From: Promethearchaeota archaeon
GTDB taxonomy: Archaea; Asgardarchaeota; Lokiarchaeia; Sigyniarchaeales; SOKP01
Length of the DNA: 28,297 bases
Reading direction: 5' to 3'
Assembly (NCBI GenBank): GCA_016840085.1
Contig: JAEOTA010000063.1
Location: forward strand, 1-28,297
The position numbers were made by a program, and so were the translations under genes. The notes under the pieces are model-generated. The model saw only the letters and a program-made list of their open reading frames with translations, did not search any database and had not been told where the DNA came from. Position 1 is the first letter of the stretch; each line of letters begins with the position of its first letter. Below are positions 171 through 17,016 of the stretch, in pieces.

Positions 171-1271
171 TTATATCCATTTTCTTCTTCTAAAAAACAT
201 AATCATAATCATAATAATCAAAATCATTACTACAATAAGCAGTGGATACGATATAGGAGACTTAAATTCGGGCATGTAGAGAAAATTCATTCCATAAAAT
301 CCAGCTAAAAAAGACAATGGGATAAATATTGTAGAAATGATTGTGAGAACTTTCATAATTTCATTCATTCTATTACTAACACTTGAAAGATACATATCTA
401 ACATTCCAAAAATTATATCTCTATAGTTTTCTAATAGATCACTGATACGAAAAACGTGATCATAAAGATCTCTGGTGTAAATTTGTAATTCGTCAGAAAT
501 TAAATTTGATTGCACTCTTAGCAACTTATTAATAACTTCTCTTAAAGGCCAAATTGATTTTCTTACATCTATACTATTCCTTTTCAGTTGATAAATAGAT
601 TGTAAGACTTCAGGTTCAGGATTCTTAATTAATTTATCTTCAATCTCCTCAATATTTTCTCCTATAATTTCCAAAATTATAAAATAATCGTCTACTATCA
701 CATCTATTAATGCATAAATTAAGTAATCAGCGTTCATTCCTCTGATCCGTCCTTTTTTAAATTGTATTCTTTCAATTATTGGGTTAAAAATATTGCTCTC
801 TTGCTCTAAAAATGATATTACAAAATTTATACCTAAGATAAAACTTATTTGTTCAGTTTCAAAAATTTCATCTTCTTGATTCCAAATGAGTATTTTTAAT
901 ACAATAAATATGTAATCTTCATAGTCTTCGAATTTTGGACGTTGATTAGGATTTAAAATATCCTCCAACACAAGGGGATGGAGATTGAATAATTCTCCAA
1001 TTTTTTCTATAATATTTATCTCCGATAATCCTGTAATATTTATCCATCTAACTTTATTTTTGCCAATTTTTAATAAATTATTATTTAAATCTTTAATTTC
1101 TTCAATAGAAAAATTTTCTGAATCATAATCTATTATTTTTATTTTAGTTTTTATCTTTGGTTTTTCTCCAGTATATACTAGAGTTCCTGGAGGTGACCCT
1201 ACTTTTTTTTTTTTTTTAATTTTTAGAATTCGTCTTGATATAGATGTAATAAGAATATCACCATAATCCAT
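171..1271 (-). CDS. corA: Magnesium/cobalt transporter CorA
   Basis: N-terminal GSPPGTLVYTG, LHPLVLEDILNPNQRPKFEDY, the YGMNF signature, an MPEF loop and two C-terminal TM helices. Confidence 0.96.
   Translation of the reverse strand: MDYGDILITSISRRILKIKKKKKVGSPPGTLVYTGEKPKIKTKIKIIDYDSENFSIEEIKDLNNNLLKIGKNKVRWINITGLSEINIIEKIGELFNLHPLVLEDILNPNQRPKFEDYEDYIFIVLKILIWNQEDEIFETEQISFILGINFVISFLEQESNIFNPIIERIQFKKGRIRGMNADYLIYALIDVIVDDYFIILEIIGENIEEIEDKLIKNPEPEVLQSIYQLKRNSIDVRKSIWPLREVINKLLRVQSNLISDELQIYTRDLYDHVFRISDLLENYRDIIFGMLDMYLSSVSNRMNEIMKVLTIISTIFIPLSFLAGFYGMNFLYMPEFKSPISYPLLIVVMILIIMIMIMFFRRRKWI
1203..1217 (-). repeat. A15 homopolymer within the 5' end of corA (encodes KKKKK)
   Basis: 15 consecutive T on the + strand at 1203-1217, currently in frame. 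Confidence 0.9.
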
Positions 1272-1656
1272 TATTTTATTGTAGTTCTAAATTCAAAAGA
1301 TAAATTACAATAATAATTTCAATTACTGCTTAGTCTATTAATAGATATATTGATTATGAATTATAAAAAAATTATTGTTCAAGTCTTTTAACAACTTAGC
1401 AACAGTTTTAAGAATGCCTTGTTATAAATTGATTTCTAATAACAGAATTAATTCGGTATCTTTTATATAAACAAATAGAATAAGTTCAAATATAAAATTT
1501 GAAAAATTAAATTTTTAATAAAAAAAAATCAAATAAAAAAGTTTTAAATATTAAAAAATCCTAAATTTAAAAGGAATTTAAGATTAACTTATAATTTATC
1601 CAACTTAAATTCCCTTAGATCCAATAATATACAACTTACATAAGAGGTAATTATGT

Positions 1657-2313
1657 ATGGAAGAGGTTAAAAACGTTGAAAGATTAGCTAATGAAAACTC
1701 AAATATAGCGAAGGATGAAAAGTTAAAAGCAGGAGAAATGAAAAATTTAGCTAAACAAGAAGTAAAACGAGCTAAAGCAAGAGAAATGTTAGTTAAAAAT
1801 GAAATTGAATTAGCGAAAATACGTGAAAGATTGGCAGAGAAGAGCAAGAAATTAGTAGAGAGAAAAGAAAAAGTAAAGGATATTTTGAAATTTTCTGGAG
1901 AAAATTTAAAAGCTGAGAAAAATCAAGCAGTTTACAATGAAAAAGTTGCTGAGATTCAAATAAAAACAGCTGAAATTCAACGAAAGATTGCGAATGTTGA
2001 AACTGAGATTGCTGAAGTAAAGATAAAACTTGCTAATAAAAAACTTGATGAGGCAAAAGAAAGAGCAGATTTATCAAAAAAACAATTTAATTACGTTAAA
2101 CTAGTTAAGAGTAATGCTCCTGGCGAAAAAGTTACAAAGGCTGAAGAAACATACCTTAAACAACAGAAAGGCTTAACTGAATTTGAAACTGATGCAATGG
2201 AAATCAATAAAGAGATTGCGGAAAAACAGAATAAATTAGCTGATCTTAAAAAAGAACTCTCGGAAAAATTAGCAGAAAGAGAAAAAATTAGACCAGCAGG
2301 AATTAGTTCTTAA
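1657..2313 (+). CDS. E/K-rich coiled-coil protein, three long helices, unknown function
   Basis: Strong heptad pattern (VAEIQIK TAEIQRK IANVETE IAEVKIK LANKKLD), helix breaks at FSGE and SNAPGE, GAGGT Shine-Dalgarno-like motif upstream. Confidence 0.85.
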   Translation: MEEVKNVERLANENSNIAKDEKLKAGEMKNLAKQEVKRAKAREMLVKNEIELAKIRERLAEKSKKLVERKEKVKDILKFSGENLKAEKNQAVYNEKVAEIQIKTAEIQRKIANVETEIAEVKIKLANKKLDEAKERADLSKKQFNYVKLVKSNAPGEKVTKAEETYLKQQKGLTEFETDAMEINKEIAEKQNKLADLKKELSEKLAEREKIRPAGISS

Positions 2314-2324
2314 ATATGATTTAA

Positions 2325-2335
2325 TTTTTTTTTTT
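2325..2335 (+). terminator. Archaeal-type oligo(T) terminator
   Basis: T11 run just after the stop of 1657..2313, between convergent genes. Confidence 0.5.
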
Positions 2336-2380
2336 ATATTAAAGACTTTCTGCTAAAAATTTTATTTTTTTTAATAAATT

Positions 2381-3295
2381 TTACCTATCTCTATATTTAT
2401 AGATAATATTATAAACTTCTTTAGCAAATATCGGTTGATATTCAAAAAGCTTTTGAGGAGTAAATGTTAAAATACGGAATTTTACTGTTATTTTAAAGCC
2501 AAAATCAACTATATCAAAACGTGGTTTAAGTCGAAAAACACCTTTATTCTTATATTCTGTACATAAATCATCTACTTTGTCCATTATTAATCGAAACCTT
2601 TTATAAGGGAAAGTCATGCGAAATGTGTAGTTATAGAGGTTGGGATAAAGCTTTGATTGAAGTTTATAATATGCTTCTTTTAACTCACTTTCAAATTCTT
2701 TATCACCAAGACTCTCTTCAATTTTTAAAATACCCTTATCTTGAGGGGCAAGGATTTTTTTTTTAAAATCCTCAAAACTTTTTCTTCTACCAAGTTTAAC
2801 GGTATAATTTACTATAATGGAAGAAATTATTAAAGAATTTGATTTTTCAATTAATATATTATCAAAAGTTTCTAATATGATTTTTGTTAAACCTATTGAT
2901 CTGATTATTCCTTTATCATTTTGAATTTTAACTAGATCTCCTACATCAAAGGGGCGTATAATCATTAAGACTATTCCTGATATTAAATTAGCAAAAATCC
3001 CACTAGATGCGAAAGCAATTGCAATACTAATTGAACTTGCTAAAACCGCTGTAAATTCTGGTGGTATGAAATCAAAAAGTGAAAAAGCCTCTATTATAAA
3101 GAATACAATAATAAAAGTAGAAATTAATTTTAATGAAAAATTAATAATCATTTTTTGTTTTAATGGAATTTTCTTAGAATGTTCTAATATTGAAGAAACA
3201 ATCTTATTTGTTAAAAATATGGCAATTATTATTATAATGAATATTATTATAATGAAATAAATTATAGCCTCTAAATCCGTATTAAATAAAGCCAA
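2381..3295 (-). CDS. MscS-family mechanosensitive channel with divergent C-terminal domain
   Basis: AFASSGIFANLISGIVLMIIRPFDVGDLVKI...GIIRSIGLTKIILETFDN is the MscS TM3/beta-domain signature. TTG start. Confidence 0.85.
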   Translation of the reverse strand: MALFNTDLEAIIYFIIIIFIIIIIAIFLTNKIVSSILEHSKKIPLKQKMIINFSLKLISTFIIVFFIIEAFSLFDFIPPEFTAVLASSISIAIAFASSGIFANLISGIVLMIIRPFDVGDLVKIQNDKGIIRSIGLTKIILETFDNILIEKSNSLIISSIIVNYTVKLGRRKSFEDFKKKILAPQDKGILKIEESLGDKEFESELKEAYYKLQSKLYPNLYNYTFRMTFPYKRFRLIMDKVDDLCTEYKNKGVFRLKPRFDIVDFGFKITVKFRILTFTPQKLFEYQPIFAKEVYNIIYKYRDR

Positions 3296-3302
3296 TTGTA
3301 TA

Positions 3303-4193
3303 TCACCTTAATTGCGTTTTTGTGTTGTTATTCCAATCAAAATTAATTTCATCTTGATATATCTGAAAAAGAACTTCTTTTAGAAAAGGGTCAAAAAATT
3401 CTAAAATTAATTTTGGATCTTTTGATAAAATTTGAAGTGTAATACTTAAACGATCAGCAATAGTATAATTAACGTAAAAGTAAGGTTTAATTCCAAATAT
3501 TGGTTCATATTTTTTTAAGACAGGTTCTAAAAGTTCATCAATTCTTTCACCATTTACTGATCCTAAAAGTTCTACAACTTTAATATACCGCGTTAATTTC
3601 TTTTTCCCAATAAAAGCTTTTTTTACTTTTTTAATAACATTTGTTAAGTCTAGTTTATCAAATTTATTCAATTCAATATGAGAATATCTAGTTATTGATG
3701 AGTTAAACACAACGCGATTTGGAATATATGTGATGCTTCCATCAAAATCCATTAATTTTATATGATTTAATGTTATTTCTTTTATAATTCCATCAATATT
3801 ATTGGTTTGAATTAAATCTCCTACTTCAAATCCTCCCGAAGATAACAATAATATACCACTTACTATATTATTTATAATCCCTTGAAAAGTCAAGGAGATC
3901 GCAACTATTAAAAATGACAAAATAGTAATAGAATATATTGGATCCAATTCGAATAACAATAGAAAAACAAATACGATCCATATAATATTCACTATAATAA
4001 TAAAAATATAACGTGATAAGAGATTTTTAACTAGGGAGTTTAAAACTTCAATCAAAATAGTTCTTAAAACATATACGATGATATTAATTAATATTAAATC
4101 AAGTAATAACTGATCTAACCTGGAGAAAAAATAGATCCAAACCCCAATAGTAATAATAAAAATCCAAAAAATTATTTTAAAAACTCTTTTCAT
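3303..4193 (-). CDS. MscS-family mechanosensitive channel with extra N-terminal TM and divergent C-terminus
   Basis: LTFQGIINNIVSGILLLSSGGFEVGDLIQ...DGIIKEITLNHIKLMDFDGSITYIPN. Confidence 0.85.
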   Translation of the reverse strand: MKRVFKIIFWIFIITIGVWIYFFSRLDQLLLDLILINIIVYVLRTILIEVLNSLVKNLLSRYIFIIIVNIIWIVFVFLLLFELDPIYSITILSFLIVAISLTFQGIINNIVSGILLLSSGGFEVGDLIQTNNIDGIIKEITLNHIKLMDFDGSITYIPNRVVFNSSITRYSHIELNKFDKLDLTNVIKKVKKAFIGKKKLTRYIKVVELLGSVNGERIDELLEPVLKKYEPIFGIKPYFYVNYTIADRLSITLQILSKDPKLILEFFDPFLKEVLFQIYQDEINFDWNNNTKTQLR

Positions 4194-7146: not shown

Positions 7147-7962
7147 TTAAATTATTACCTTCTCAGGATGAGTATAAATATTCATTCTACTCCCCCTAAC
7201 AAATCCAATTAATGTAATCCCGTAAGCAAAAGCCAATTTAATACCAGATTCAATTGCAGCAGAAAGAGACGCAACTATAGGAATTTTAGCCCTAATCGCT
7301 TTTAAGACAGAATCTCCTGTTAATCTTCCTGAAGAAGTTAGAAATACATTTTCAAAACCTTTTTCTTTTAAAATCAATTCACCTATGACCTTATCGATTG
7401 CATTATGTCTTCCAATATCTTCTTTAACACTTAATAAATTTCCATCAAAATCAAAAATTGCAGCACCATGACAACCTCCAGTTTCTCGATAAATTGGAGT
7501 TGAGATTTGCATTTTTTTTATAGAAGAAAAAATGAGATCTGAGTTCAATTTTACATTAGTCTCAGATTTAATAGCATTATTAATCTTAGCCTCATCCAAC
7601 TTTTTTTTAATCATATTGCGCCAAGCTGATGGGATACCACAAGTAGTATCAATAACACGACTTATTGAGTTAAGATTAAGGTTTTCAATATCAAATTCAA
7701 TATTATCGTTTAATTTGACATGTACAGAATACTCTAATTCATTAACGTCAATTTCCTCTATATCATTAATAGAATTAATAACTCCTATTGAAAATAAGAA
7801 TCCTACGGAAAGTTCTTTTAAGTCCTTTGGTAGACATATAATATTCACAAGTGGCTCAGAATTAACAAATAAATCAATTGCACTTTCATAAAGAATAACA
7901 TCGACTATTTCTTCTTTTTTTGTTTTGTTTATTCTTGTAATATTTATCTTTCGCTTAAACAA
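7147..7962 (-). CDS. fdhD: Formate dehydrogenase accessory sulfurtransferase FdhD
   Basis: PKDLKELSVGFLFSIG, ETGGCHGAA, EDIGRHNAIDK, LTSSGRL, TLIGFVRGSRMNIYTHP. Confidence 0.95.
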   Translation of the reverse strand: MFKRKINITRINKTKKEEIVDVILYESAIDLFVNSEPLVNIICLPKDLKELSVGFLFSIGVINSINDIEEIDVNELEYSVHVKLNDNIEFDIENLNLNSISRVIDTTCGIPSAWRNMIKKKLDEAKINNAIKSETNVKLNSDLIFSSIKKMQISTPIYRETGGCHGAAIFDFDGNLLSVKEDIGRHNAIDKVIGELILKEKGFENVFLTSSGRLTGDSVLKAIRAKIPIVASLSAAIESGIKLAFAYGITLIGFVRGSRMNIYTHPEKVII

Positions 7963-8121
7963 TTTTAATCCTTGAAATAAATTTAATTGATTTTTATTAA
8001 TATAATATTAATTTAATTTTTACTCTGAAAATGTTAAATTAGTATTAAATAATATTATAAAAAAGGAAAGTAAATAGCTATTTATATTTATAAGCTAAAA
8101 ATAGGATAATAAAAAATATTT

Positions 8122-8931
8122 TTATACAGCAATAAATAATCTGCCATTGGTTTCTTTACTTACAGAATGATCTCCTGAATACTCAATAAATTTACCGTTT
8201 ATTTTATCCCCATTAGGCAATTCAACAATGTTTACTTCTCCAACTTTCGTATAGGATGGAAGTCTCCTTGATACTTCACCTTTTATAACAATATTTCCCC
8301 ATGCTTGATCTGCGCCAGTGCATCGATCACAGTCACCTTCTACTATAATTGTTCCACCATGATTATGCATTCCTAAAAATGAAGCTGCACTCCCACATAT
8401 TAACTTAGGCCATTTATTAGCTCCTTTTGAATTTCGAGCCCATAACATAGATTCATTTCCAACTTTTCCTTTAACTTTTATAACTCCATCTTCCATACCT
8501 TGCCAATAACCGCGATAAGCAGCTCCAACATAATGCCCTGCATCTCCATTAATTTCTAATTCCCCTCCTTTTAGCATTGCACCAGCCCAATCATCTGCGT
8601 TTCCATTGACTGTGATTTTTCCTCCTGTCATATTGTTCCCAACATGCATCCCTACATTTCCATTAATGATAATTGCACCACCACTCATTTTTTCTCCGAT
8701 ACGTTTAACAGATGATAAATTTCCTTCGATAATAATAGTTAGGTCATTTATATCACCCGATTTTCCTGACACTTCAAAAAAATCACCTATTGTTTTTTCC
8801 TCGTTTCCATGATAAATTATCAATTTTTTAATATCTGCTTGAGTTTTACCAGCGAAATTATCAGGCGTTATAGTTTCAGCTTCTAATGGAAATTCTGGTT
8901 CCTTTTTTAATTTTAATTTGATTTCAGCCAT
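8122..8931 (-). CDS. fwdC: Formylmethanofuran dehydrogenase subunit C
   Basis: PLEAETITPD N-terminus, GXGXG beta-helix repeats, GAAYRGYWQGMEDG. Coupled to fwdB by a TAATG overlap. Confidence 0.93.
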   Translation of the reverse strand: MAEIKLKLKKEPEFPLEAETITPDNFAGKTQADIKKLIIYHGNEEKTIGDFFEVSGKSGDINDLTIIIEGNLSSVKRIGEKMSGGAIIINGNVGMHVGNNMTGGKITVNGNADDWAGAMLKGGELEINGDAGHYVGAAYRGYWQGMEDGVIKVKGKVGNESMLWARNSKGANKWPKLICGSAASFLGMHNHGGTIIVEGDCDRCTGADQAWGNIVIKGEVSRRLPSYTKVGEVNIVELPNGDKINGKFIEYSGDHSVSKETNGRLFIAV

Positions 8932-10262
8932 TATTTACTCCCCATTTTCTTTTTAACTACTTCTATTAATTTTTCTAAGATCTCATTATCAGTTAAACAC
9001 TCTCCTGGCGCATCTTTAACCTTTCTTAATCTTAAAGGAACATTGTCCATACGATATGCGGTTCCTTCACATTCTATTCCTGCAATAGCAGGTGGTAAGA
9101 TTATATCTGCATTTACGGATGTTGGAGTGTGATGAGGTTCAATAGATATAAGAGGATGTGTAAACATATTTTTTACAGCTGCTGCAGGAAAATTACTTGC
9201 TGGATCAGATGCTACAATTAATGAAGCATCTGCTTCATCCCTCATTAATACATCTACGGAAGAGAATTCTCCTGGATTATAGCGTGGATACCCTTTAGAA
9301 AAATCTATAGAATAATTATATCCTGTTTGCCATGTAAAGACTTGGTTTGCACCTGCAACATTATAATGACCTCGCATAGGAGTTAATAAAAATTTTGTAT
9401 GATCATTCAGTTCCCGTACTAAACAAATAGCAGCATCAATATTTCGATGATGGGATAATGATTGGGTTAATCCCATACCAAAAAAGATGACACCAAAATT
9501 ACAAGACTTTAATATTTCTACTAATTCTTTAATTTTCTCTATTGGAATTCCTGATATTTCTTCTTCGTCTACATCCACGCCTCGCAACATTGCTCTAATT
9601 GCGTTAATTAACTCATAATCTTCGTTAGGGTTAACTTGAATAAATAAATCAGCGATTTGAGCAGTATGGGTGTTTCTTGGATCCACCACTACAATAAATC
9701 TATCATTTCGACCATCTTTTCTAAAATATCCACGTACAAATTCACTATACCTTCCAAGATGTCGTGGATGAGCATGAACTGGATTAGAACCCCAAAATAT
9801 AACGAGATCAGCTCTATTTTTATACTCGCCTAAGGTTGAAGTTGGAGCTCCAACATCTTGAATTGCTAATAATGATGGACCATGACATACAGAAGATGTA
9901 TTATCTAAAATCCCCCCTAATAATTCTGCTAGTTCTACACCTTTACCTTGAGCTTCACATTCTGTACTTGAAAAGCCATATAACAAAGACCTCTTAGCTT
10001 TTACAAGAATATCCGCAGCTTTATCTAAAGCTTCATCCCATGATACTTCCTTATAAGAACCATTATCTTTAATTAAGGGTTTTTCATATCGATGTTCGCT
10101 AGGATTTGATGAAAAAAATTTTTTAGTTCCAATCTGACATCCATTTCTTACTTCTACTACTTTCTGCTCATTTACATCGACATCTACTTCAAGATCGTCG
10201 CATAACGTCCCACAGAAAGGACAAACTACATCAGTTATAGTTTTAATATTCTTTGTTACCAT
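8931..10262 (-). CDS. fwdB: Formylmethanofuran dehydrogenase subunit B (W/Mo-bis-pterin, Cys-ligated form)
   Basis: CPFCGTLCDD...C [4Fe-4S] motif, DNTSSVCHGPS metal-ligand Cys, WGSNPVHAHPRH, PMRGHYNVAG, GTAYRMDNVP. Confidence 0.96.
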   Translation of the reverse strand: MVTKNIKTITDVVCPFCGTLCDDLEVDVDVNEQKVVEVRNGCQIGTKKFFSSNPSEHRYEKPLIKDNGSYKEVSWDEALDKAADILVKAKRSLLYGFSSTECEAQGKGVELAELLGGILDNTSSVCHGPSLLAIQDVGAPTSTLGEYKNRADLVIFWGSNPVHAHPRHLGRYSEFVRGYFRKDGRNDRFIVVVDPRNTHTAQIADLFIQVNPNEDYELINAIRAMLRGVDVDEEEISGIPIEKIKELVEILKSCNFGVIFFGMGLTQSLSHHRNIDAAICLVRELNDHTKFLLTPMRGHYNVAGANQVFTWQTGYNYSIDFSKGYPRYNPGEFSSVDVLMRDEADASLIVASDPASNFPAAAVKNMFTHPLISIEPHHTPTSVNADIILPPAIAGIECEGTAYRMDNVPLRLRKVKDAPGECLTDNEILEKLIEVVKKKMGSK

Positions 10263-10264
10263 TT

Positions 10265-10660
10265 TTATGCCCCCTTTAAAGTGCTAATTAGTTCTACTGC
10301 ATCCAGTACTTTACCATTTGGAACAGCTTCTACACTTGCTTTCATCCCTTTATATGTAGGTGTGCCGCAGGATTGAGAATCTGGATTAACTACTTGGTTT
10401 GCCCAAGGGCCCATGGGAATAAAAATAATTCCAGGATGAGGTCCTTCTTCTGAAATGGTTGAATACACCATTACTTCACCATGATCTGTATAAACCTTAA
10501 CTGGGGTTCCAACAAGATAATCTAGCTTTTTAAAATCATCTTTATCAAATGCACATATGGCTGCTGCCCGAACATTTTCACGAGTGTTTTTTCCTCCTTC
10601 AAGAGCAATACCCTGGTTAATGGTTCGACAAGTTATTAGTATTAAATTATTTATACTCAT
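10265..10660 (-). CDS. fwdD: Formylmethanofuran dehydrogenase subunit D (molybdopterin dinucleotide-binding)
   Basis: LITCRTINQG, GIIFIPMGPWAN, GTPTYKG. ATG at 10660 chosen to avoid overlap with the upstream gene. Confidence 0.93.
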   Translation of the reverse strand: MSINNLILITCRTINQGIALEGGKNTRENVRAAAICAFDKDDFKKLDYLVGTPVKVYTDHGEVMVYSTISEEGPHPGIIFIPMGPWANQVVNPDSQSCGTPTYKGMKASVEAVPNGKVLDAVELISTLKGA

Positions 10661-10664
10661 CTTA

Positions 10665-11384
10665 TTATTCCTCCTTTGATTCACTCCACCTTAAAGTCTT
10701 TAATCTTTCTGTAAGTGGTTCCCAGAACATCTCACTAAACTCACCTGAAGACTTAACTTCAGTAATTTTTAACTTTACAGCCCCAGTAGGACAAGTATTA
10801 TCACAGGATCCACAAAAAATGCATTTTTCAGGGTCGACAACTACATTAGGGACAGTTTCCCATCCTTTATCGGATCTTTCTGGAATTGTTATCGCTCCGC
10901 TTGGACAAACATCTGCACATGCGTCACAACCTCCAGCACATTCCTCATCAACAATGCTAATTTCTCCCTCAGAATATTGCTTAACAACTCTTTCTACTCC
11001 CGTAATATCAGTTATTTTTTTTGCTTCAAATTCGAGTTTAGGAACAACCTTTTCCTTAACAATTTGAATATCTTCTAACTCTATTACTTGACCATCTTTT
11101 TTAAGCGTTAAAGCGCTAAAAGGGCACATAACTACACAAGTTCCACAAAAAACACATTTTTCTGGATCATATATTTCTGGAATGATATCTTCTAAAGATG
11201 GGAACCTACGAGCTGCTGCGACTGGCCCGCGCGAAATTGCTTCCTTTGGACAAACTCTTGCGCATGTACCACATCCTACACATTTAGTTCTATCTAAAAG
11301 GAGTTCCAAACTTTCAGTAAGGAATTGAACTTTTACATGTTCGAGATCTTTACTTATTGAACGTGATATTTTTGGAAATGACAT
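10665..11384 (-). CDS. fwdF: Short FwdF-like polyferredoxin (four [4Fe-4S] motifs)
   Basis: CVGCGTCARVCP, CVFCGTCVVMCP, CAGGCDACADVCP, CIFCGSCDNTCP; position in the fwd operon. ATG at 11384. Confidence 0.75.
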   Translation of the reverse strand: MSFPKISRSISKDLEHVKVQFLTESLELLLDRTKCVGCGTCARVCPKEAISRGPVAAARRFPSLEDIIPEIYDPEKCVFCGTCVVMCPFSALTLKKDGQVIELEDIQIVKEKVVPKLEFEAKKITDITGVERVVKQYSEGEISIVDEECAGGCDACADVCPSGAITIPERSDKGWETVPNVVVDPEKCIFCGSCDNTCPTGAVKLKITEVKSSGEFSEMFWEPLTERLKTLRWSESKEE

Positions 11385-11394
11385 ATTTTCTACC

Positions 11395-11652
11395 TCATTT
11401 AACTTCAATTAATTGTAATTCTATAGCAGAAACGGGACAATATTTCAGACAAACCCCACAGCCATCACAATTTACATCTCTACCCTCAACATATATATCG
11501 TACGCCATTCCATTTTTAACCAAGACTACTGCGTTTTCTTCAGTTAAATAACCTTTCTCTTTTAATTGTTGGAAATTCAATGGACAACTAACGACGCAAT
11601 CATTACAACCGATACAATTGTTCTTGTTTATTTTTAATCGGTATATTTGCAT
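11395..11652 (-). CDS. fwdG: FwdG-like 2x[4Fe-4S] ferredoxin
   Basis: 85 aa, with CIGCNDCVVSCPLN and CDGCGVCLKYCPVSAI spaced as in methanogen FwdG. Confidence 0.78.
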   Translation of the reverse strand: MQIYRLKINKNNCIGCNDCVVSCPLNFQQLKEKGYLTEENAVVLVKNGMAYDIYVEGRDVNCDGCGVCLKYCPVSAIELQLIEVK

Positions 11653-11984: not shown

Positions 11985-13100
11985 ATGGAATCTACGAAGA
12001 GTGAAGACTGTCTTATTTTTTATGGGTTCACACCAGAAATTATTAAATTAAAACAAGTCTATCACGCGATAGAAGATTTTATAAAAAGTAAGCAAGCTAA
12101 TGATCCTTCTGATAGATTTAATCTAATAATATTTCAAAAAGATGGCCCAAATTATTTGGATCATTTTACTTTTGAACCAGATCATATTTTAAAAACTTTG
12201 AAATCATTAAAGAATAATATTGTTCGAGCTAATGTCGCTGGTGGGATTTTTATAGCTATTACATTTATAATTGAAGTATTCAAGAAAATTTCTGAAAAGA
12301 TATTTCGATTAGTAATATTAATCGATGAAGGCACTTATGAAATTCCTGAAGAATATATTCATCCTATAGAAGAATTAATTAAAGTAGTAAAGAATATGCC
12401 ATTTTTTATTGATATTGTGAGGATTAGTGAGGAAAATTCTGAAGAAAGCATAAAATTAATGAAATTAACACACTTATGTAATGGCGAGTTCTATGAAATT
12501 GATAATCTTCGCGATCTAACTCCTTTATTAAATAGACTTTCTGAAAAAAAATACATTTCTGAACCTACATTTATTAAACAAAAAATAAGGATGATCCTGA
12601 AGGAAAATCAACCATTTTATATTAATTTAGCTGATGAGCCTAAAATTATAAAAGAGAGGGCAACATGTTCAATTTGCTTTCATGAGGATGATTCTGGTAT
12701 ATTACAATGCCCCTCATGTGAAACATTAGCACATAACATTTGTTGGGCACAATGGGCTAAAACATCAAATATTGGTATTCCCCATGTATTTAGATGCCAT
12801 AATTGTTTTAATATACTAAAACTTGACAGTGATTTTGTTTTTGATGTTCAAGCAGGAAAGATTCCTTCAATAGCTGAATTAAAAAAAGTGAAGAAAAGAA
12901 ATATTGTTGAATATTTACACGAATTAGAAGCTAAAGAAAAGCCTAAAATAATTCATGCTAAGGTCCCAATGGGCGTCGAGATTAAAGAGACTAGCCAAAA
13001 AAAGTTATTGCAGAAAAAGATCATTATTTGTCCCAATTGTAGCCGAATTATTATCGGAGATAAGAAGAAATGCCCATCCTGCAATTTTATTTTGTTTTAG
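11985..13100 (+). CDS. vWA-domain (Rpn10/Ssl1-like) protein with C4HC3 RING/PHD-like finger and C-terminal Zn ribbon
   Basis: FIKSKQANDPSDRFNLIIF...RLVILID...FFIDIVRI...LTHLCNGEFY fits a vWA fold. The finger is CSIC-x10-CPSC-x4-H-x2-C-WAQW...CHNC. The ribbon is CPNC-x10-CPSC. Confidence 0.75.
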   Translation: MESTKSEDCLIFYGFTPEIIKLKQVYHAIEDFIKSKQANDPSDRFNLIIFQKDGPNYLDHFTFEPDHILKTLKSLKNNIVRANVAGGIFIAITFIIEVFKKISEKIFRLVILIDEGTYEIPEEYIHPIEELIKVVKNMPFFIDIVRISEENSEESIKLMKLTHLCNGEFYEIDNLRDLTPLLNRLSEKKYISEPTFIKQKIRMILKENQPFYINLADEPKIIKERATCSICFHEDDSGILQCPSCETLAHNICWAQWAKTSNIGIPHVFRCHNCFNILKLDSDFVFDVQAGKIPSIAELKKVKKRNIVEYLHELEAKEKPKIIHAKVPMGVEIKETSQKKLLQKKIIICPNCSRIIIGDKKKCPSCNFILF

Positions 13101-13227
13101 AGATTGTTTGAAAAGTGCACCTTAAACTTTTATTAATACAAATTCTATATCCTATTTGAAAAGATTTTTATTAAAAACTTGGATCATTAATATTAGTATT
13201 TGTAATTATCTTGAAATCCCTTTTTCA

Positions 13228-14352
13228 ATGTCAAATATAAAATATCAATTATCTCATATCTTTAAACATAAATGTGCTGTATGGGAGTTTACTCTAAAAT
13301 GTAATAGTAAATGTATTCATTGTGGCTCATCGGCAGGTAAACCTCGATTAAATGAACTCAATACTGAAGAGGCTTTAACATTAGTAAAGGATCTAAATTC
13401 TTGCGGTTATGATGGAATAGCATTAATGGGAGGGGAACCATTTTTACGAGATGATTGGTATGAAGTTGCTCAGGAAATTAAAAAAAATCAAATGAAACTT
13501 ACACTTGTTTCTAATGGATTAGATATTATAAGTCAAATTCAAAAATTAAAAAGTTTGCAAACAGATTGCGTTTCTTTAAGTTTAGATGGTGGAACTCCTA
13601 AAACTCATGATTACATAAGAGGAATTAAAGGTGCATTTGATAAAGTATTACATGTTATAAACGTTTTAAGAAAAGAAAAGTTACCTGTTAGTGTCATTAC
13701 TACAGTTAGTAAGATTAATTTTAAAGAATTAAATCTGATTCGAGATTTATTAATTAATAAAAAAATCGCATGGCAAATTCAAATAGCTTTACCTATAGGA
13801 CGCTCTTCAAGGGATTTAGTGATTACTAGAGAGCAATTTTATGCTGTAGCGATGTTTATCGCAATAAATCTTAAAAAATATTCGTCGAAAGAATTACCTT
13901 TAATAGGAGCTCATTGTTTTGGTTATTTTTCTAATCTTTTACCGGAATTAGGTTTAGATCCTTGGATTGGTTGTCAAGCAGGTAGATCAGTTTTAGGTAT
14001 TCAAAGTAATGGAAATATTAAAGGGTGTTTAACTCTACCAGATGATTTTATCATCGGAAATATCAGAGTTAACAATTTACATAATATAATAAATTCAAAA
14101 ATTAATTCTAAAAATTTTCAATTCTTTCATAAGAATAATTCAGAAAATTACTGTAGCAAATGTATAATGTTAAAAAGATGTAGAGGTGGTTGTTTAGGTA
14201 CTGCAATTGCTTTTAATTCGTTTGATAATCCATATTGTTTAAGAGCAATTGAAAAAGAAATATTTAAAAATAATTATTTGCCATTTAGGTGGAAAATGAA
14301 TTCTAAAATTTTAGAATATAAATATTTATTCAATAAAATACTTTTTAAATGA
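13228..14352 (+). CDS. Radical SAM/SPASM-domain enzyme (PqqE/peptide-maturase-like)
   Basis: AVWEFTLKCNSKCIHCGSSAG (CxxxCxxC), GGEPFLR, SLSLDG, and SPASM CQAG...GNIKGC...CSKC-x5-CRGGC...C. ATG at 13228 preferred over TTG at 13156. Confidence 0.92.
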   Translation: MSNIKYQLSHIFKHKCAVWEFTLKCNSKCIHCGSSAGKPRLNELNTEEALTLVKDLNSCGYDGIALMGGEPFLRDDWYEVAQEIKKNQMKLTLVSNGLDIISQIQKLKSLQTDCVSLSLDGGTPKTHDYIRGIKGAFDKVLHVINVLRKEKLPVSVITTVSKINFKELNLIRDLLINKKIAWQIQIALPIGRSSRDLVITREQFYAVAMFIAINLKKYSSKELPLIGAHCFGYFSNLLPELGLDPWIGCQAGRSVLGIQSNGNIKGCLTLPDDFIIGNIRVNNLHNIINSKINSKNFQFFHKNNSENYCSKCIMLKRCRGGCLGTAIAFNSFDNPYCLRAIEKEIFKNNYLPFRWKMNSKILEYKYLFNKILFK

Positions 14353-14381
14353 ATTAAAATCAAAAATAGGGTGATCAAAAT

Positions 14382-14642
14382 ATGATATTCAAGGAAATAT
14401 TTCAGTTTTATAAGATTGGGAAAGAATTAGGATTGACTCGAAAAGAAATCGATAGTGTTCTTTTATTTAAAAATAGATCCCCATTGATTCTTACTTTAAT
14501 GCTTATTATAATTCTAGCCGTCTTTGCATTTCTCTTCTGGAATATGGCTTTACTTTTTTACATGAGAACAACTGAACCAGTTTATCCTCGAGGAGGTCTA
14601 TATTCAAGTATTAGTATAAAAGATTTTAAAGATAAAAAATGA
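14382..14642 (+). CDS. Small single-TM protein (86 aa), candidate substrate or partner of the radical SAM enzyme
   Basis: GGTGA SD-like motif upstream, ATGA overlap with the next gene, one TM helix, C-terminal tail RTTEPVYPRGGLYSSISIKDFKDKK. Confidence 0.75.
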   Translation: MIFKEIFQFYKIGKELGLTRKEIDSVLLFKNRSPLILTLMLIIILAVFAFLFWNMALLFYMRTTEPVYPRGGLYSSISIKDFKDKK

Positions 14643-15982
14643 AGTTGAATATTGGTTGCGGAAAAAAATTTGAACCCGATTATTATAATATCGATTTATA
14701 TGATAATTTGGTTGCTGACAAGAAAATGTCAGCTTTAGATCTAGATTTTGCTGATAATTCTTGTCAAGAGGTAAAAGCAATCCATCTAATTGAACATTTA
14801 GGATTTTATCAATCAATTTATGCCCTAAGTGAGTTTTTTAGGGTGTTAGAACCAAAAGGAAAATTAATTTTAGAAACTCCAGATTTAGAAAAGGCTTTTC
14901 GAATTTATTTAAACTCCAATTATGAGCAAAAAAAAGATATACTAAGTTGGATTTATGGACTTCCTCATGAAGGTTTACAGCATAAATTCTGTTTTCCTTC
15001 TCAATTAATGATTGAGATATTAGAAAAGATTGGATTTGATGATATTATTCAAACCAATTTTTATAATCAAGAGTCAATCCCTACTATAAGATTCGTTTGT
15101 AATAAACCCATAAATGATGAATATCTGGGAGTATTTCAAATTTTCTCGTCTATTCGTAAAAAATTGTTGTCTAAAAAAATAATTGATTTCAAGAATTTGT
15201 TTTTAACTAAAGAACAAGAAGATCTATTAAATCTTTTGCTAATTGAAACGATAAAAATCATAAAAAATGAAAAAAAAAGTCTTAAATTTATTGAAAAAGC
15301 TTTAATTTGTTCTCCTCAAATTGTTCAAATCTATCTAACTGAAATGATTAATAGAGGTTACATTTCAAATCTTGAAGGAGATTATATTTTAGAAATTATC
15401 AAATATCTAATTAAATTTAAATTTCAAAATATTTTGTATAGTTCACTTAAAAATGCACCAATTATTCCTGGAAGTCAGAAAATTATATTTTCTTCTATTG
15501 AATCTTTTGGGTTAACATTGATTAATAGATTTTTATATATTAAAGCTGAAAAATCAAAAATAATCAATAATTTAAAGCAATTATCTGAAAGCCTTAAACC
15601 TCGAGAAATTCCCTTTTTTTCTCCTGAAATTATAAAAAGAGACTCTTTAGACTATTTCTATCAAGGGATTAAAGAATTTCATAAACAGGATTATAATAAC
15701 TCATTAGACAAATTTTTAACGGCAATAAAACTGTATAGAGATGATTTTTTATATTATTGGAATTTAGCAAGGGTTTTAGTAAAGTTAAATTTTAAGCAAA
15801 AGGCGATTCGATATTATAAAAGATCATTAAAATTATTAAGTATTACAAAACTTCAAAGTAAGGTCCAAGTTAGAAAAGATATTAAAAGAGAATTAGATTG
15901 GATAAAAAAACAAAAAAGAACACTACCAAAATTGGAACCGATTCAATCTCTTGAGAAATATCAGCCTAAAAATTTATTTTAA
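14639..15982 (+). CDS. Class I SAM-dependent methyltransferase fused to a C-terminal TPR domain
   Basis: KLNIGCG motif I, HLIEHL, EFFRVLEPKGKLILETPD; TPR-like YFYQGIKEFHKQDYNNSLDKFLTAIKL / YYWNLARVLVKLNFKQKAIRYYKRSL. Confidence 0.87.
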   Translation: MKLNIGCGKKFEPDYYNIDLYDNLVADKKMSALDLDFADNSCQEVKAIHLIEHLGFYQSIYALSEFFRVLEPKGKLILETPDLEKAFRIYLNSNYEQKKDILSWIYGLPHEGLQHKFCFPSQLMIEILEKIGFDDIIQTNFYNQESIPTIRFVCNKPINDEYLGVFQIFSSIRKKLLSKKIIDFKNLFLTKEQEDLLNLLLIETIKIIKNEKKSLKFIEKALICSPQIVQIYLTEMINRGYISNLEGDYILEIIKYLIKFKFQNILYSSLKNAPIIPGSQKIIFSSIESFGLTLINRFLYIKAEKSKIINNLKQLSESLKPREIPFFSPEIIKRDSLDYFYQGIKEFHKQDYNNSLDKFLTAIKLYRDDFLYYWNLARVLVKLNFKQKAIRYYKRSLKLLSITKLQSKVQVRKDIKRELDWIKKQKRTLPKLEPIQSLEKYQPKNLF

Positions 15983-15993
15983 GAGGTGTTAAT

Positions 15994-17016
15994 ATGAAAG
16001 AAGAGAGAAATGAAAATAGAGGCAATAAAGTGGGTTTTATTATTTTAGGGATAATTTCCCTTTTTCTGTTAATAATAAACTTTATACCTGTATTTATAAT
16101 TGATGCTGGTTTAGAAAGTAGTTTTACAGGTGATACTGATCCCGATGCCATAATATATGTTAATAAAACAAATCCAGATAAAAATTATGTTGATAATGAG
16201 GATTTATATATTGGAGAGTTTTGTGAAGTTTATTTATATTTCAATCTTGGATCGTTACCAAAGAGAACAGAACAACTATACTTCTTTCTTGAAGAAGACT
16301 TTTCCTATAATTTTTATGATTTTCCTGTAAAAGATATGGAAATAAACGTAATTCTAGTTAACTCAGACTGGGATGCTTCCGAAATAAACTGGAATAATAA
16401 ACCTAAACATGAAAGAATAATTAATACTGTTAAAATTTCCGATATTACTCAAGATCTATTCTTTGAAGGATATAATTTTAAAAGAGCTGTTGATTTAACA
16501 ACGATGTTAAAAGAAAATGAGCCTACAGAAATTAGCTTTTGTTTGAATATCACAGAAAAGAACGAAAAATTAAATAGCAGTGTAAAATTATTTTTGCCTG
16601 GTTTCATATGGAATTATGAAAAAGTTACTCTTTCTTACACTACAATTATTTCAACCCTTGTAGTTTTCTCATGTTTTGTAGGAGCAATCTTTTTCTTGCG
16701 GAAAGATTTATTCTTATGCTCTAATTGTGAGGTTAAAAGAATTCTTGAAGATCAATTCTGCCGTTCGTGTGGGACAAAATTTAACGACAATGTTTTAATT
16801 AAAGGGTGTGATTACCAATTAATATTGGCTCTATTGTGGCTTTTTATACCGATAGAAGTTTCAATCTTGTTTGGAATTTTAACCTTTACGTCTTTAGGAT
16901 TTTTTGGATTTTTTTTGGGGATTTTTATTTTACTTTTAGACATATTTTGCTTGAAACAAATGAGGATAAAAATAAAAAATTATAAAAAATTAAAAAGTAA
17001 TTTAAAACAAACTTAG
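15994..17016 (+). CDS. Membrane protein with extracellular DNRLRE/CBM96-like domain, cytoplasmic Zn ribbon and C-terminal TMs
   Basis: N-terminal TM; YVNKTNPDKNY...LYIG...YLYFNL...DWDASEINWNNKP (DNRLRE-like pattern); TM; CSNC-x10-CRSC; two further TMs. Confidence 0.65.
   Translation: MKEERNENRGNKVGFIILGIISLFLLIINFIPVFIIDAGLESSFTGDTDPDAIIYVNKTNPDKNYVDNEDLYIGEFCEVYLYFNLGSLPKRTEQLYFFLEEDFSYNFYDFPVKDMEINVILVNSDWDASEINWNNKPKHERIINTVKISDITQDLFFEGYNFKRAVDLTTMLKENEPTEISFCLNITEKNEKLNSSVKLFLPGFIWNYEKVTLSYTTIISTLVVFSCFVGAIFFLRKDLFLCSNCEVKRILEDQFCRSCGTKFNDNVLIKGCDYQLILALLWLFIPIEVSILFGILTFTSLGFFGFFLGIFILLLDIFCLKQMRIKIKNYKKLKSNLKQT

Follow-up and report, generated by a model that had tools for sequence, protein, structure and literature searches.

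The p44 and p34 subunits of TFIIH and the Rpn10 subunit of the proteasome are regarded as eukaryote-specific proteins. Some eukaryotic ligases and scaffolds, namely RGLG and WAV3 of plants and Ste5 and Far1 of fungi, are cytoplasmic proteins that carry both a von Willebrand factor type A (vWA) docking domain and a RING finger. Here, we describe a gene of a Promethearchaeota archaeon (class Lokiarchaeia) that encodes both kinds of domain. The gene lies at positions 11985 to 13100 of the forward strand in contig JAEOTA010000063.1 (assembly GCA_016840085.1), which was analyzed as a single stretch of 28,297 nt (the window). Its open reading frame is uninterrupted (371 codons plus stop, encoding 371 residues), the surrounding DNA is AT-rich (∼29% G+C), and the start codon is supported by full-length orthologs of 60 to 92% identity that align from Met1. 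The gene is real and strongly conserved in Loki-type Asgard archaea, and its product consists of a vWA domain that has no MIDAS (metal ion-dependent adhesion site), followed by a C4HC3 RING-type cross-brace finger and then by a C4 zinc ribbon. On the basis of sequence and predicted structure, we tentatively read this protein as a RING-type ubiquitin-ligase-like adaptor specific to Lokiarchaeia, giving that reading somewhat less than an even chance of being correct.

The AlphaFold2 model of the protein, computed with a 62-row alignment, had a mean predicted local distance difference test score (pLDDT) of 91.5 and a predicted template modeling score of 0.85. Residues 1 to 192 (11985–12560, forward strand, as for all segments of the gene) adopt the Rossmann-like α/β fold of vWA domains and are of the Rpn10/p44-like (VWA_2) kind. 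A preliminary description of this DNA had seen no obvious DxSxS sequence of the MIDAS, and that sequence is absent; the site reads G14-F-T-P-E18, and D114 alone, the last Asp of the motif, is retained. The linker (residues 193–225; 12561–12659) contains one conserved helix (residues 206–215) that runs into the finger; its pLDDT dips near residues 190 to 200 and is high afterward, and the segment can be aligned with its equivalent in an Ssl1-type paralog (see below). The C4HC3 finger occupies residues 226 to 280 (12660–12824) and is expected to bind two zinc ions. It is followed by a Lys/Glu-rich helical connector (residues 281–345; 12825–13019) with helices at residues 282 to 289 and 307 to 317, pLDDT values of 66 to 77 near residues 290 to 300 and 330 to 345, and a length that varies through insertions and deletions between orthologs. 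The terminal zinc ribbon (residues 346–371; 13020–13097), with the pattern C349-x2-C352-x10-C363-x2-C366, was modeled as two β-hairpins and fell short of threshold on the Pfam models DZR (E = 0.0046) and Zn_ribbon_9 (E = 0.026).

Homologs of the protein fell into no fewer than 271 clusters when grouped at 90% identity. The best 120 homologs showed essentially full-length coverage with 57 to 92% identity, and all source names given for them were Asgard (Promethearchaeota, Lokiarchaeota, and others). Judging from the identity of these full-length orthologs, purifying selection on the gene is strong. HMMER, run exhaustively against 1.84 billion representatives, yielded just 174 proteins in all at E ≤ 0.001 (50% identity representatives), which marks the family as a narrow one. 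We assessed conservation in an alignment of 62 diverse family members with identities down to ∼17%, where it exceeds chance by far. The invariant columns were D114, G167, C228, C231, C242, C245, H250, C271, and C274, and the finger has the spacing C228-x2-C231-x10-C242-x2-C245-x4-H250-x2-C253-x17-C271-x2-C274. Seven of its eight ligands are thus invariant, and the remaining one, C253, is Cys in 56 members and His in six; this persistence of the ligand columns across the alignment argues that the Cys/His pattern is real and under selection. The finger pattern, the Trp placed as in RING-variant E3s, and the terminal zinc ribbon had all been proposed in the preliminary description, and each was recovered: Trp257, four residues after the sixth ligand, occupies a position with an aromatic residue in 52 of the 62, and the ribbon Cys residues are retained in 41 to 45. 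The first MIDAS position is Asp in 37 of the 62. The sequencing runs listed for the gene are of DNA from marine-sediment and mangrove metagenomes, and none is of RNA.

The protein is a diverged, MIDAS-less paralog of MIDAS-bearing vWA-RING-RING proteins encoded in its own genome (4.68 Mb, 98.8% complete), which contains five family members. The MIDAS-bearing proteins, here termed Ssl1-type paralogs (393 and 401 residues; contig C68, 19817–20620, and contig C70, 105616–106479), keep the canonical motif (DTSRSM and DSSRSM) and exceed the Pfam cut-offs for VWA_2 (55–60 bits), VWA, and Ssl1 (33–39.7 bits, cut-off 27). They carry two fingers, the second being RING/C1-like and standing in place of the ribbon. 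BLASTP aligned the protein with the 401-residue paralog over the vWA domain, linker, and RING (E = 5e-13, 23% identity). In a quickly built maximum-likelihood tree with 80 members, a long branch with full support divides the Ssl1-type proteins from two clades in which the MIDAS is degenerate. One of these two clades contains the gene described here together with forms of ∼1100 residues, and the other contains tandemly encoded proteins of 430 to 490 residues. The distribution of the family was surveyed in 301 sampled Asgard genomes. Relatives were found in 76 of 77 Lokiarchaeia genomes (68/68, 7/7, and 1/1 in three families of the class) and in none of the 223 genomes of other classes, and close orthologs (E below ∼1e-60) were confined to the gene's own taxonomic family. 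Pfam Ssl1 followed the same distribution (67/68, 6/7, and 1/1 in the same three families), with one subthreshold match elsewhere.

The vWA domain was compared with known structures and sequences. In a Foldseek search of the PDB with the full-length model, an approach that the preliminary description had suggested for Rpn10, Ssl1/p44, and Tfb4, the TFIIH chains Ssl1/p44 and Tfb4/p34 led the ranking (E = 2e-10 to 1e-8 over 290–350 columns), and isolated Rpn10 vWA domains followed at E ∼3e-6. For the vWA domain itself, structural similarity was highest to p44/Ssl1, with a modest margin of ∼3 Z units over ordinary vWA domains. When the family profile was searched against all PDB sequences, the best match was human Rpn10/PSMD4 (E = 1e-7 over 144 profile positions), followed by Schizosaccharomyces pombe Rpn10 (3e-4), a bacterial vWA protein (9e-4), MERIT40/BABAM1 (1e-3), and p44 (3e-3). 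The two likenesses to Rpn10 motifs that had been pointed out in the preliminary description were both recovered in this HMMER alignment, the family region "...KSKQANDPSDRFNLIIF" standing opposite human Rpn10 "SKTRSNPENNVGLITL" and "FIDIVRI..." opposite "VDIINFGEE". The Ssl1-type profile matched S. pombe Rpn10 (4e-12), a bacterial BatA-like vWA protein (4e-11), and p44 (7e-10). Because the BatA-like domain scored nearly as well as Rpn10, the affinity of the superfamily to the eukaryotic proteins does not stand clearly above that to prokaryotic VWA_2 domains. When language-model features (ESM Atlas) were compared, Lokiarchaeial clusters headed the list, followed by eukaryotic GTF2H2/Ssl1 clusters at 0.86 to 0.89; values below 0.9 are a lead only.

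The finger has eight zinc ligands in cross-brace spacing and, in the model, a RING fold. All of its top 50 structural matches were RING, U-box, or PHD folds, including one PHD, in agreement with the RING-like finger first proposed, and the nearest structures were active E3 RINGs (FANCL, Deltex, ZNRF1, Ltn1, RNF4, and Arkadia/RNF12). When the C-terminal model was searched by itself, Foldseek found nothing at E ≤ 0.001; the best matches were the Ark2C and RNF12 RINGs at E = 0.03 to 0.05. In the PDB profile search, the finger region matched both PHD and RING domains (MTF2, Jade-1, Arkadia, Nse1, Doa10, and FANCL). The protein alone reached no curated Pfam or NCBIfam threshold, its best Pfam scores being 18.9 bits for Prok-RING_1 (cut-off 29.1), 17.5 for DZR, and 16.7 for VWA_2 (cut-off 27). 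Across the 62 family members, matches at E ≤ 0.01 were to Prok-RING_1 in 23, PHD in 16, C1_1 in 10, zf-RING_2 in five, VWA_2 in four (best 4.8e-10), and Ssl1 in one. PADLOC defense models matched neither the protein nor an Ssl1-type paralog.

If the protein is an adaptor of the ubiquitin-ligase kind, it would be soluble and cytoplasmic, and its MIDAS-less vWA domain would dock a protein partner or substrate without metal, as in p34 and Rpn10. The RING would recruit one of the Lokiarchaeial ubiquitin-conjugating (E2) enzymes, so that the protein acts as a ubiquitin ligase (E3)-like enzyme or adaptor, and the terminal ribbon may supply an extra protein contact or an intramolecular brace. Three points favor this reading: positions that resemble E2 contacts are hydrophobic, the fingers closest in structure come from active ligases, and every relative searched in the clade encodes E2s. 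We take the E2-contact positions to be those of canonical RING E3s such as c-Cbl and the RING-H2 ligases. Two residues after the first ligand, Ile, Leu, or Val is found in 53 of 62 members; four residues after the sixth, Trp, Tyr, or Phe is found in 52; and the residue after the seventh is Pro in 23 and His in 14. The hydrophobic positions are compatible with E2 binding, and the alignment takes the point no further than that. Genes for E2s of the UQ_con family occurred in 21 of 21 relatives searched, mostly two to three per genome, and the organism's own genome encodes ubiquitin-like and E1-like (ubiquitin-activating enzyme-like) genes. A predicted complex of residues 196 to 300 with a congeneric E2 scored 0.61, compared with 0.47 for one control, a result that counts neither for nor against binding.

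Several observations weigh against a ligase function. The ligand spacing C3-x2-C4-x4-H is of the PHD type, and PHD fingers are not ligases. The seventh ligand is followed by His in place of Pro, and the eighth by F275 and N276, with no basic residue. The Pfam RING models zf-C3HC4_3 and zf-RING_16 matched the protein only at E > 5, and the RING-like domain of p44, a close structural match, is a protein-binding module in the TFIIH core. Among 16 orthologous loci compared, no ubiquitin-system gene was a conserved neighbor, and the sole strong E2 gene of the organism's own genome is broken by an in-frame stop. Our confidence in the ubiquitin-ligase-like reading stays a little under the halfway mark on account of three of these points: ligand spacing of the PHD type, neither Pro nor a basic residue around ligands 7 and 8, and no ubiquitin-gene neighbor.

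Its main rival is a non-catalytic scaffold, in which the RING-like finger and the ribbon would bind protein only, much as the C-terminal RING of p44 binds the vWA domain of p34. By this analogy, the two to seven paralogs found per genome might assemble head-to-tail into hetero-oligomers without any transfer of ubiquitin. We consider this rather unlikely. The abundance of paralogs, often encoded in tandem pairs, would suit such an assembly, as would the p44/Ssl1 and p34/Tfb4 chains at the head of the full-length Foldseek ranking (E = 2e-10), a vWA domain without MIDAS like that of p34, and the absence of an adjoining ubiquitin-system gene; against it stand conserved hydrophobic residues at the E2-contact-like positions and nearest fingers that are mostly those of active E3s.

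The PHD-like spacing suggests another possibility, namely a reader or nucleic-acid-associated regulator whose C4HC3 finger would bind a modified tail or a chromatin protein and whose ribbon would bind nucleic acid. The matches of Pfam PHD to 16 and of C1_1 to 10 of the 62 members, and the PHD fingers of MTF2 and Jade-1 in the PDB profile list, are in keeping with it, and Pfam PHD gave E = 0.23 for the protein itself. Nevertheless, the dominance of RING and U-box folds among the structural matches, with one PHD in the top 50, makes this reading improbable; in addition, no aromatic-cage pattern was evident, and the Pfam scan of the protein detected no DNA-binding domain.

That the protein is a true counterpart of p44/Ssl1, with a vWA domain that would bind and stimulate an archaeal XPD in repair or transcription, has little chance of being correct. 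Although p44/Ssl1 is the best structural match of both the full-length model and the vWA domain, and the paralogs pass Pfam Ssl1, the protein itself gave no match to Pfam Ssl1 (PF04056) even at E ≤ 10 and none to C1_4 (PF07975), the C4C4 RING-like domain, in the Pfam scan. The genome encodes XPD-like DEAD_2 helicases, but on other contigs (C4 and C50), unlinked to the gene. Within this 98.8% complete genome, the lone match to p34/Tfb4 (PF03850) was subthreshold (18.6 bits) and fell on a paralog, p52/Tfb2 (PF03849) had no match, and nothing exceeded the cut-off for C1_4; for p34 and p52, these are results with these models and not proof of absence. The RING precedes the ribbon, an order different from that of p44, and, unlike XPD, which occurs widely among archaea, the family turned up in Lokiarchaeia only. 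An Rpn10-like receptor that docks through its vWA domain on the archaeal proteasome/PAN or on a JAB/MPN complex has scarcely any chance, despite the profile match to Rpn10, given that no ubiquitin-interacting motif (UIM) was detected in the protein at Pfam E ≤ 10 (a short model that a weak motif could escape), that no proteasome or JAB gene was seen beside the gene, and that archaea are not known to have the lid subunits (the Rpn8/9/11 context) that hold Rpn10. We do not read the protein as a TFIIH or proteasome subunit. Of the relationship to Rpn10 and p44 first proposed, the likeness of fold and profile was recovered, by a modest margin over ordinary vWA domains, with p44 at the top of the Foldseek list and Rpn10 at the top of the profile list, and the family matches (Ssl1, C1_4, and UIM) and the p34 and p52 partners were not found. 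The proposed link to the proteasome, transcription, or repair was not borne out: there was no link to the proteasome, XPD, or transcription, and no conserved neighbor was found.

Two ubiquitin-system genes of the genome are interrupted. Relative to congeneric orthologs, the sole strong E2 (UQ_con) gene (contig C78, 52530–52988, forward strand; locus L035, 1441–2010) and the E1-like (ThiF) gene (C78, 55673–56923, reverse strand; locus L063) each contain a 30-nt in-frame insertion with a TAA stop. The interrupted E2 reads ...MMHIE[LCEYLA*RVK]PPFF... and has no ATG, GTG, or TTG codon where its orthologs start; the E1-like gene reads GVGALG[IL*TIIFVKG]CEIAK. The E2 insertion and its flanks fold as a hairpin that pairs both flanks (−24.1 kcal/mol, z = −3.0), and that of the E1-like gene has a weaker fold (z = −1.5). 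It is possible that these insertions are small spliced elements, that the genes are pseudogenes, or that the sequences are assembly artifacts.

Other members of the family vary in length and setting. The genome's tandem pair (contig C49, 132388–134740) encodes proteins of 404 and 441 residues with a vWA domain and a C4HC3 finger, a degenerate MIDAS (YLDLTKD and YLDLIGD), and acidic tails. Similar tandem arrangements were found in many Lokiarchaeial genomes, and a divergent, coiled-coil-like 440-residue open reading frame upstream of the C49 pair had no Pfam match. The 401-residue Ssl1-type paralog is encoded head-to-head with a Gtr1/RagA- and Arf-like GTPase gene (Gtr1_RagA, E = 7.7e-20), the two lying on contig C70 at positions 1246 to 2451 (reverse strand) and 2677 to 3864 (forward strand) of locus L005. 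Orthologs of the gene described here are often duplicated in tandem or nearby (contig C16 of genome G279, C13 of G207, and C74 of G183). In G183, a long form of 1088 residues is encoded directly upstream of a 388-residue copy; it starts with the same vWA-RING-ribbon arrangement and continues for ∼600 residues of no recognizable family. For the C-terminal 600 residues of the ∼1100-residue members, searches of Pfam, the PDB, and the Atlas gave no informative match.

Upstream of the gene, on the opposite strand, lies a formylmethanofuran-dehydrogenase-type (fwd) operon (window positions 7147–11652, reverse strand) that encodes a GXGXG subunit, a molybdopterin oxidoreductase, a molybdopterin dinucleotide-binding subunit, and polyferredoxins. 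Downstream is a radical-SAM/SPASM cluster (13156–17016, forward strand) comprising a radical-SAM/SPASM gene, an 86-residue membrane protein, a methyltransferase-TPR gene, and a CBM96-like membrane protein, and beyond it a 2-oxoacid:ferredoxin oxidoreductase. Among the 16 loci, fwd genes adjoined the gene in nine and the oxidoreductase in eight, all in close relatives and with a varying position of the gene, and more distant genera showed no shared neighbor. The radical-SAM/SPASM cassette was beside the vWA-RING gene in just three of the 16, a distribution that resembles that of a segment inserted between conserved neighbors. A functional operon with these genes was rejected on the grounds of synteny in close relatives only, the shifting position, and the sporadic cassette, and we read the neighborhood as inherited synteny.

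A conserved, multi-paralog Asgard family that unites an Rpn10/p44-like vWA domain with a eukaryote-style RING is of interest on two accounts: as a candidate native E3 that would recruit substrates in the ubiquitin system of Asgard archaea, for which little is known about E3s, and as a candidate prokaryotic relative of the eukaryotic p44/p34/Rpn10 adaptors. Within the library searched, we found no paper that describes an Asgard vWA-RING family and none that links Asgard archaea to Ssl1/p44-like proteins. The scope of the claim is bounded by the occurrence of the family in Lokiarchaeia alone among the Asgard lineages sampled, and by the position of the gene in the more diverged, MIDAS-less branch, below every curated family threshold. 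Descent of the eukaryotic proteins from the Lokiarchaeial family is possible. In its full form, this idea would make the superfamily (the MIDAS-less branch plus the Ssl1-type double-RING paralogs) the archaeal sister group, still surviving, of the eukaryotic clade of intracellular vWA proteins (Rpn10, p44, p34, and MERIT40). The TFIIH core of vWA domain plus zinc finger and the ubiquitin receptor of the proteasome would then descend from an archaeal family of RING E3-like adaptors rather than being eukaryotic inventions. We regard this as fairly improbable, and a simple ancestor reading is not favored because the family was found in none of the 223 other Asgard genomes.

Compared with described systems, the protein shares with p44/GTF2H2/Ssl1 an intracellular vWA domain at the N terminus and, after it, zinc modules with a RING-like cross-brace among them, and the Ssl1-type paralogs of the same genome exceed the Pfam Ssl1 cut-off. 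It differs from p44/Ssl1 in its C4HC3 rather than C4C4 finger, in its vWA-RING-ribbon rather than vWA-ribbon-RING order, in the missing DxSxS and Ssl1/C1_4 matches, and in the lack of detectable p34, p52, or C1_4 homologs and of an XPD link in its genome; sequence identity is just 12 to 15%. Rpn10/PSMD4 has UIMs and neither RING nor ribbon, and keeps the start of the MIDAS (D-x-S), which this protein does not; no proteasome context was seen here. Unlike the RING E3s (FANCL, Arkadia/RNF12, and Deltex; Prok-RING_1, PF14446), the finger falls below Pfam cut-offs, is PHD-like between ligands 3, 4, and 5, and lacks both a Pro next to ligand 7 on its C-terminal side and a basic residue following ligand 8. 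The vWA-then-RING order is also that of RGLG, whose vWA domain is of the copine type with a MIDAS, whereas WAV3, Ste5, and Far1 have the RING first; none of these four was among the top structural or sequence matches. The Ssl1-type paralogs share the homologous vWA domain, linker, and first RING and the same confinement to Lokiarchaeia, and differ in their intact DxSxS, their Pfam VWA_2, VWA, and Ssl1 matches above cut-off, and their second finger. Because it fails the sequence tests that define the p44/Ssl1 and Rpn10 families and the partner subunits were not found, the protein is not a member of either. Its layout and fold come closest to those of p44/Ssl1 and its vWA sequence to that of Rpn10, and it belongs, as a diverged member, to a vWA-RING superfamily of Lokiarchaeia that has no name.
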